Shown here: piece after piece, positions 9,079 to 9,927 of the stretch | How the letters are laid out: the number at the start of each line of letters is the position of its first letter | How positions within the stretch are numbered: the stretch's first letter is position 1 | From: Citrobacter rodentium NBRC 105723 = DSM 16636 | GTDB taxonomy: Bacteria > Pseudomonadota > Gammaproteobacteria > Enterobacterales > Enterobacteriaceae | DNA length: 24,000 bases | Assembly (NCBI RefSeq): GCF_021278985.1 | Contig: NZ_CP082833.1 | Location: 462,600-486,599 of the forward strand | Direction: 5' to 3' | Made by a program: the position numbers and the translations under genes | Notes under the pieces: model-generated | The model's database searches: none | The model's input: only the letters and a program-made list of their open reading frames with translations | Told to the model about the DNA's origin: nothing

Positions 9079-9927
9079 TTAAAACAGGCCGATCCAGGAG
9101 CCGAAAATACCGACCAGCGCAATGCCGCCGATAATGGTTAACGGCTTCACTTTTTTACCCAATAGCCAGTAGACGATGGCAAAGCTCAGCAGCGGCAGCA
9201 GGCTGGGCATGATGTCGTTGATAATGTCCTGAACCTAGGTTTTCGCATCGCCGGTGCCAAAGGCGATGGGAATAGTGATGTCGATCATCGAAGCGGTCAT
9301 GGCGCCGACGACCATCAGACCGATAATGGAAGCGCCATAGGTCAGGCTTTCCATCATGCCGTTCTGCTGGATCCGCTGTAGCACGCCGGTGCCCAGCACG
9401 TATCCCCAACGGGTAAAGAGCCAGCGCAGCAGGATATGCGGCACGTTAAAGACCAGCAGAAACAGAATCGGTCCGAGAATATTGCCTTTCAGGGCCAGAC
9501 TGGTGCCGATGCCGGTGGCGATAAGACGCAGCGTGCCCCAGAAGAATGAGTCGCCAATCCCCGCCAGCGGCCCCATTAACGAAGCTTTGACGTTATCTAT
9601 CGAGGTGGCATCCATCTCCTGCTGCTGGCTGTTTTTCTCCTCCATCGCCACGGTAATGCCCAGAATAAGGGTGACGATATGCGGCGTGGTATTAAAGAAG
9701 GCGAGGTGGCGCTTCAACGCCTCAGCCAGCTCCTCTTTACGGGTGTAGAGCTTTTTTAATACCGGAATCAGCGTGTAAGCGAACGCGAGATTCATTTGTC
9801 GTTCATAGTTCCACGAAAATTCCATCTGGAAGGAGCGCCAGAATACGCGGCGTAAGTCACGCGCGGTCACCCCCTGCGGATTGTCCGCCTGCGGGCGGTT
9901 TTGTTCAGAAATCATCTTCGTCGTCAT
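9079..9927 (-). pseudogene. PTS mannose-family EIID component (gfrD-like) interrupted by an in-frame TAG at 9237..9235; the ORF as encoded is 9235..9927 (230 aa)
   Basis: The ORF gives MTTKMISEQ...WNYERQMN...ITIPIAFGTGDAKT then TAG. The same frame continues for 51 sense codons (VQDIINDIMPSLLPLLSFAIVYWLLGKKVKPLTIIGGIALVGIFGSWIGLF) to TAA 9081..9079. The 282-codon total equals normal ManZ-type EIID length, and the tail carries the family's C-terminal hydrophobic WLL.KK..P segment. Confidence 0.8.

Follow-up and report, generated by a model that had tools for sequence, protein, structure and literature searches.

A recent amber mutation in gfrD of Citrobacter rodentium, probably leaving an otherwise intact gfr operon cryptic

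Results

Location and structure of the interrupted gfrD gene

The stretch of DNA analyzed here, referred to as the window, comprises 24,000 nucleotides of the Citrobacter rodentium NBRC 105723 (DSM 16636) chromosome (assembly GCF_021278985.1, contig NZ_CP082833.1, positions 462,600 to 486,599 of the forward strand). It contains an operon for a phosphotransferase system (PTS) in which one gene, gfrD, is divided by an in-frame TAG codon. The gfrD gene encodes the enzyme IID (EIID) subunit of the fructoselysine/glucoselysine PTS (PMC12675984; PMC4987338); the corresponding gfrABCDEF system of Salmonella Typhimurium is attributed to Miller et al. 2015, as that work is cited in PMC12675984 and PMC4987338. 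The following features make up the divided gene; positions are those of the window, and ORF denotes an open reading frame.

9235..9927, minus strand: gfrD (PTS EIID) codons 1-230 and the premature TAG; the exact 230-residue product occurs on 190 contigs
9235..9237, minus strand: premature amber TAG at codon 231, next base G; aligns within the variable extracellular TM7Z-TM8Z loop of ManZ
9079..9234, minus strand: untranslated gfrD remnant, codons 232-282 and the original TAA; two hydrophobic helices aligning to ManZ residues ~229-280
9079..9210, minus strand: ATG-initiated ORF of 43 residues within the gfrD remnant; 'putative membrane protein' of strain ICC168 (CBG91541 / UniRef100_D2TRU9)

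The whole gene, running from 9927 to 9079 on the minus strand, begins with an ATG at 9927 and continues through 230 sense codons (MTTKMISEQ...GTGDAKT) to the TAG at 9237..9235. Downstream of the TAG the same frame holds 51 sense codons (VQDIINDIMPSLLPLLSFAIVYWLLGKKVKPLTIIGGIALVGIFGSWIGLF) and ends, with no second stop, at the TAA at 9081..9079. This arrangement of 230 codons, TAG, 51 codons, and TAA had been described in an initial annotation of the window, and all of its coordinates and peptide sequences proved to be correct. The ATG of the next gene (9066) lies 12 nucleotides past the original gfrD TAA and 168 nucleotides past the new TAG. Since a run of 51 open codons is not rare at the base composition of the window (P about 0.14), it is homology, and not the openness of the frame, that carries the case for a single gene. 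With the stop masked, the conceptual 282-residue product matched the Pfam EIID-AGA family (PF03613) over positions 2-265 of 265, with an E value of 1e-108 and a score of 363 bits, where the cut-off of the family is 25 bits. Because the match covers the family over this length, the TAG interrupts a complete domain and does not mark the end of a short one. The gene thus lacks an uninterrupted frame encoding all EIID transmembrane helices, the TAG at codon 231 removing the last 51 residues, and gfrD as it stands is a pseudogene of the PF03613 family, not a working member.

The 21 annotated stop codons of the window comprise 11 TAA, 9 TGA, and 1 TAG, the sole TAG being the premature one of gfrD. 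TAG is generally rare in enterobacteria, so a single occurrence among the 21 stops fits and is not evidence of anything unusual. Reassignment of TAG, including to pyrrolysine, was considered and rejected, as in-frame TAG codons are absent from every other gene of the window and C. rodentium belongs to the enterobacteria.

Organization of the gfr operon and its orthology to Salmonella gfr

The split EIID gene adjoins the genes for its cognate EIIC, EIIB, and EIIA components, all on the same strand, within an operon that includes the following.

11710..14475, minus strand: gfrR, LevR-like sigma54 enhancer-binding activator with PRD and EIIA-like domains, 921 residues, intact
11646..11661, minus strand: sigma54 (-24/-12) promoter TGGCACGCCGCTTGCT between gfrR and gfrA, TGGCAC-N5-TTGC with 0 mismatches
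11186..11608, minus strand: gfrA (EIIA), 140 residues, intact; the mechanical ORF list extends it too far, to a TTG-initiated ORF of 168 residues
10710..11171, minus strand: gfrB (EIIB), 153 residues, intact
9905..10684, minus strand: gfrC (EIIC), 259 residues, intact; overlaps the start of gfrD by 23 nucleotides, as in the orthologues
8005..9066, minus strand: SIS-domain deglycase gene in the gfrE position, 353 residues, intact
6976..7986, minus strand: SIS-domain deglycase gene in the gfrF position, 336 residues, intact; best NCBIfam match FrlB, under the curated cut-off

FrlB is a fructoselysine-6-phosphate deglycase. The seven genes were found to be collinear in Citrobacter cronae, Citrobacter werkmanii, and Salmonella enterica, each of which has a single EIID gene of 282 codons. 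In the order gfrR, gfrA, gfrB, gfrC, gfrD, and the two SIS genes, the products measure 921, 140, 153, 259, (282), 353, and 336 residues in the window versus 921, 140, 153, 259, 282, 352, and 336 residues in Salmonella. Gene lengths other than that of gfrD are equal to those of C. cronae and C. werkmanii, and the first SIS gene of Salmonella is one codon shorter. For the six other operon genes, the ratio of nonsynonymous to synonymous substitution rates (dN/dS) was 0.03-0.16. The initial statement that the remainder of the operon (the activator, EIIA, EIIB, EIIC, and both SIS enzymes) is undamaged was therefore borne out by the gene lengths shared with C. cronae and C. werkmanii and by the perfect sigma54 promoter. 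The position of this promoter at 11646..11661 also fits the known control of gfr by GfrR and sigma54 (PMC4987338).

NCBIfam contains no model specific for Gfr, and all matches to its models, including ManZ and AgaE/AgaD, fell below the curated cut-off; for this reason the gfr identity was taken from published deletion primers. The lambda-Red ΔgfrD primers (SL1344_4469) listed in Table S1 of PMC12675984 were mapped on a Salmonella gfr locus (L086), where their 40-nucleotide arms matched exactly at positions 5973-6012 and 6850-6889, flanking a 282-codon gene at 6001-6849. The EIID protein encoded there (P0014) was 91% identical to the conceptual product of the window over 282 positions. The placement of the deletion arms around this gene and the level of protein identity establish that the split gene of C. 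rodentium is orthologous to gfrD, and the assignment to gfr that had been proposed from the window alone was thereby confirmed.

Codon 231 among EIID homologues

A search of 5.8 billion proteins returned 4230 matches, the best 120 of which were examined. All 120 homologues were 278-283 residues long, in agreement with the earlier view that a single EIID gene of the normal ManZ/LevG-type size, and not a naturally short one, had been hit by one nonsense codon. The alignment of orthologues that had been proposed at the outset showed that codon 231 is normally a sense codon (CAT or TAT in the nearest relatives) with a hypervariable residue and that 51 residues lie beyond it. Indeed, among the 116 homologues that could be scored (those in which the flanking motif was locatable), every one had a sense residue at the position equivalent to the TAG and exactly 51 residues after it, and the residue at that position was E in 43, H in 42, G in 21, Q in 6, N in 3, and Y in 1. 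Functional EIID proteins that end naturally at about 230 residues and are followed by a small membrane protein, an arrangement raised in the initial annotation, were not found, all 116 being contiguous. At the DNA level, codon 231 is CAT (His) in C. cronae and Salmonella and TAT (Tyr) in C. werkmanii; the stop is confined to C. rodentium, with sense codons in C. cronae, C. werkmanii, Salmonella, Leclercia, and others. The gfrD tail itself was identical to the C. cronae, C. werkmanii, and Salmonella orthologues at 47-49 of 51 residues.

The codon from which the TAG arose had been described initially as not inferable, and this caution was well placed: CAT, TAT, CAG, and GAG are all found among relatives, at about 17% nucleotide divergence. 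From CAT, two steps are needed to reach TAG; from TAT, CAG, or GAG, one. The suggested origin of the stop from CAG is possible but not favored, the nearest relatives having CAT or TAT at a hypervariable position. On this codon comparison, a change from TAT to TAG would be at least as parsimonious as one from CAG to TAG, TAT being the codon found in a closer relative. No intact EIID allele more than 93% identical to the C. rodentium product was found among the 5.8 billion proteins. A megablast search of 5,426 complete Escherichia coli genomes with gfrD gave no match, in line with the absence of the gfr operon from E. coli (PMC4987338). In a scan of genome contigs, the matches listed were loci from Kluyvera, Klebsiella, and Firmicutes, and not the nearest Citrobacter and Salmonella loci.

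Separate lesions of gfrD were observed in Salmonella enterica. In one locus (L088, positions 1931-2779; Logan SRR22230160), gfrD has a GGA-to-TGA nonsense mutation at codon 190, and in another (L089, positions 1932-2779; Logan SRR12672328), it has a deletion of 1 base pair at nucleotide 492. Both lesions leave the same C-terminal ORF of 92 residues (P0150 = SQJ28580.1), which is present on approximately 17-20 contigs, including a 4.75-Mb chromosome.

Age of the nonsense mutation

Substitution rates in gfrD were calculated by the Nei-Gojobori method with three outgroups (C. cronae, C. werkmanii, and Salmonella), for which dS was about 1.1. The dN/dS ratio of the 51-codon tail was 0.017-0.031 versus 0.021-0.025 for the upstream conserved part of the gene, and nucleotide divergence was 0.170 in the tail versus 0.171 upstream. 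Because both measures equal the upstream values, the tail has been under the same purifying selection for nearly the whole time since the species diverged. This result and the lack of a second stop support the earlier suggestion of a very recent inactivation that left a cryptic pathway. The nonsense mutation is recent relative to the divergence of C. rodentium from other Citrobacter species, yet it is older than the ancestor of all sequenced isolates. In a published study of C. rodentium (PMC3072379), the species is described as having a clonal origin and signs of a recent bottleneck. The same study gives it 182 chromosomal pseudogenes, mostly the result of single mutations and 152 of them still transcribed, features that its authors read as recent disruptions and continuing gene loss.

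Predicted loss of the two C-terminal helices

The gfrD tail contains two hydrophobic segments of helix length, centered near residues 247 and 272. It aligned to residues of about 229-280 of E. coli ManZ (6K1H chain Z), following the extracellular TM7Z-TM8Z loop. With the Lactococcus ManZ (8HFS_Z), the alignment was broken exactly at the position of the TAG by an insertion of about 50 residues, which we took, from the alignment, as the putative extracellular gamma region, i.e., the TM7Z-TM8Z loop. In ManZ this loop is the extracellular gamma region, and the V-motifs of ManY and ManZ interlock to form a homotrimeric scaffold, relative to which the Core domains undergo an elevator-like movement (PMC8021565; PMC12915331). 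An AlphaFold2 model of GfrD built from a 14-sequence alignment was too poor to use, with a mean pLDDT (predicted local distance difference test score) of 38 and a pTM (predicted template modeling score) of 0.19.

Annotation of the locus in public records

The window operon has exact matches in C. rodentium ICC168 for the regulator (CBG91536), EIIA (CBG91537), EIIB (CBG91538), EIIC (CBG91539), and the SIS proteins (CBG91542-CBG91543). Between the last two groups, the 5' part of gfrD is annotated from Met5 as CBG91540, a 'PTS transport system, IID component' of 226 residues, and the 43-residue CBG91541 is in all likelihood an artefact that arose in annotating the split gene, so that the locus is to be read as a gfrD pseudogene. 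Because the 2010 annotation of ICC168 issued these two proteins, the tally of 182 pseudogenes probably does not include the gfrD locus. In later NCBI re-annotations, the accessions run from EIIC (HAT8013244) to the first SIS protein (HAT8013245) with no EIID protein issued, a gap that would be expected if the gene had been flagged as a pseudogene. The split of gfrD is thus already visible in public records, and the event is of an entirely ordinary type; no paper discussing gfrD in C. rodentium was found in a literature search.

Additional features of the window

Upstream of gfrR lie a gene for a Zn-dependent alcohol dehydrogenase (14636..15658), a GntR regulator gene, an MFS transporter gene (16914..18293), and a gene for a Tar-like chemoreceptor (18352..20079). 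In Salmonella the chemoreceptor gene directly adjoins gfrR, and in C. cronae and C. werkmanii a gene of the mannitol dehydrogenase family is found there; because the neighborhood differs between species, an inserted or replaced block upstream of gfrR (14636..20079) is suggested. The GntR/FCD-family regulator (15799..16713, plus strand) is unusually long at 304 residues, with a GntR helix-turn-helix at residues 26-59, an FCD domain at 159-286, and approximately 100 residues between the two. A weak second winged-helix match (Rrf2, residues 91-143) may represent a duplicated or inserted DNA-binding domain.

At 20151..23965 is a galactonate-like (dgo-type) cluster, with an RpiR/SIS regulator on the plus strand and, on the minus strand, a KDPG/KDPGal aldolase, a 2-keto-3-deoxygalactonokinase, and a sodium:solute symporter (SSF). 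The symporter takes the place of the usual MFS transporter of the DgoT type, and the genes overlap by 4-11 nucleotides. A sigma54-like -24/-12 match (TGACACTAGAATTGCA) with one mismatch was noted at 4506..4521 on the plus strand, about 100 nucleotides upstream of the opgB-like gene. Such matches were expected 0.99 times in the window and found twice, counting the genuine gfr promoter, so the match at 4506..4521 is at the level of chance.

Discussion

The proposed course of events is as follows. A single base substitution would have turned codon 231 into TAG, within the variable extracellular loop, and translation would then end after 230 residues to give a GfrD protein devoid of its last two transmembrane helices. 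By comparison with ManZ, the missing helices would form part of the V-motif that interlocks with the V-motif of EIIC in the trimeric scaffold, and the Gfr permease most likely fails to assemble or to function. GfrR is believed to respond to a single input, the inhibitory EII-dependent phosphorylation of PRD2 (PMC4987338), which would keep the activator off until transport of substrate begins. A permease that does not transport should therefore keep GfrR phosphorylated and leave the intact gfrABCEF genes uninduced and cryptic. Polarity could also arise from the 168 nucleotides of mRNA that now go untranslated ahead of the next gene. The mutation is fixed in every sequenced C. rodentium strain, which fits the documented clonal bottleneck and ongoing gene loss of the species.

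Several other explanations of the TAG were weighed. If the true genome had a sense codon at 9235..9237, the TAG would be a sequencing or assembly error, which would be of the simplest type, a single-base difference, and would agree with the intactness of the remaining operon. The exact truncated product, however, was recovered in 196 blocks (on 190 contigs) of NCBI, ENA, and Logan (SRA-run) data that had been assembled independently, and it is as frequent there as the intact neighboring proteins, exact copies of which were found on 122-188 contigs. One independent Logan assembly (SRR7468340) was identical to the window over 6693 nucleotides, TAG included. Moreover, public records contain no intact allele of the C. 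rodentium type, and the finished ICC168 genome also has the gene split into CBG91540 and CBG91541. Strain EX-33, which was isolated independently, has been compared with ICC168 (PMC3072379); with regard to the differences between the two strains, no PTS gene is mentioned in the main text of that study, with its table of gene differences, or in the supplementary files examined, one of them in part. The possibility of a base-call error, which the initial annotation had left standing, can be set aside on the strength of the independent assemblies, and we consider it to be the least probable of the explanations.

It is also conceivable that readthrough or suppression of the UAG codon yields enough working 282-residue GfrD. 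Downstream of the TAG, the frame is intact over 51 codons, and the position of the stop, where orthologues have E, H, G, Q, N, or Y, accommodates nearly any residue, so an amino acid inserted there would probably be accepted. An intact tail is equally expected after a recent mutation, however, and its dN/dS ratio fits both explanations; in addition, the stop is kept in no related species, unlike the stops of programmed readthrough sites. The base that follows the TAG is G; Poole et al. reportedly described in 1995 how the base following a stop codon acts in E. coli, with G not being leaky. Wild enterobacteria are not known to carry efficient amber suppressors as a rule, and a scan limited to the 24-kb window revealed no tRNA gene and no Rfam element. 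Expression dependent on amber suppression, another of the initial suggestions, accordingly found no support, since the stop is not conserved outside the clonal species and no tRNA is encoded in the window; we judge that sufficient readthrough is very improbable. Slightly more doubtful still is a functional EIID in two pieces, in which the 230-residue fragment would be joined by a separately translated 43-residue membrane peptide (ORF 9210..9079). The listing of this ORF as a separate 'putative membrane protein' in ICC168 and the location of the break in a loop between helices are in its favor, as is the fact that split polytopic membrane proteins sometimes complement one another. LacY fragments are an example of such complementation. 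However, whereas each real gene of the operon is preceded by a Shine-Dalgarno sequence, none lies 5-10 nucleotides before the ATG at 9210, and the nearest AGGA there is 16 nucleotides upstream. Furthermore, the 116 scored orthologues are contiguous and the split is limited to one clonal lineage. The splits of gfrD in Salmonella, being at other positions and consisting of one nonsense mutation and one frameshift, point to damage and not design. Taken together, a split gfrD that is still functional, whether by low readthrough or by assembly of the 230- and 43-residue pieces, is as improbable as readthrough itself; if it were true, weak or conditional uptake of fructoselysine/glucoselysine would be kept, and this would explain the undamaged operon.

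We therefore favor, with a probability of roughly 0.9, the conclusion that gfrD of C. rodentium is a recent pseudogene created by a single nonsense mutation, which leaves an otherwise intact and probably cryptic gfr operon. Some considerations weigh against this conclusion. The role assigned to the missing helices is a predicted one that draws on the alignment to solved ManZ structures and on published descriptions of them, and the loss of transport, the loss of induction, and the polarity on the deglycase genes are all consequences that we infer for C. rodentium. Most public C. rodentium data come from very few original isolates, so that "fixed" here means fixed in the sampled clone. In addition, basal near-cognate readthrough of UAG occurs in enterobacteria, and a low natural level of it might give a little full-length GfrD.

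C. rodentium is the standard mouse model for attaching/effacing pathogens. This organism is most likely unable to use the Gfr route to fructoselysine/glucoselysine, and the loss is relevant when competition for nutrient niches is compared between C. rodentium and Salmonella in mice. In Salmonella, Gfr confers a measurable advantage in early colonization of the mouse gut, and a ΔgfrD strain is attenuated (PMC12675984). The independent breakage of gfrD in some Salmonella lineages suggests, for its part, that the pathway is dispensable in some niches. The general significance of the finding is small, as it adds one more single-hit pseudogene to a genome already described as decaying.

Comparison with known systems

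The closest known counterpart is gfrD of Salmonella enterica serovar Typhimurium (SL1344_4469; STM4538 by its position in STM4535-40), with which the window has a common operon order and near-identical gene lengths. Downstream, both also have an opgB-like sulfatase-family gene, a DUF2501 gene, dnaC, and dnaT. The two differ at codon 231, which is CAT (His231) in Salmonella and TAG in C. rodentium, where no more than 230 residues can be made. E. coli ManZ (PDB 6K1H/7DYR chain Z) belongs to the same family, PF03613, and aligned over residues 16-281 (E value of 2e-63), the C-terminal two-helix segment included; it is, however, a member of another substrate subfamily, a paralogue and not an orthologue, and it is intact. 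With respect to the type of lesion, gfrD resembles the single-hit pseudogenes of ICC168 (PMC3072379) in that a single mutation inactivates a gene which, like its operon, is otherwise intact, in a clonal, recently bottlenecked pathogen, and the published view of such genes as recently disrupted suits gfrD as well. The Salmonella gfrD lesions likewise inactivate the gene by a single small change within a gfr operon that is otherwise intact, although their positions and lesion types differ from those of C. rodentium.

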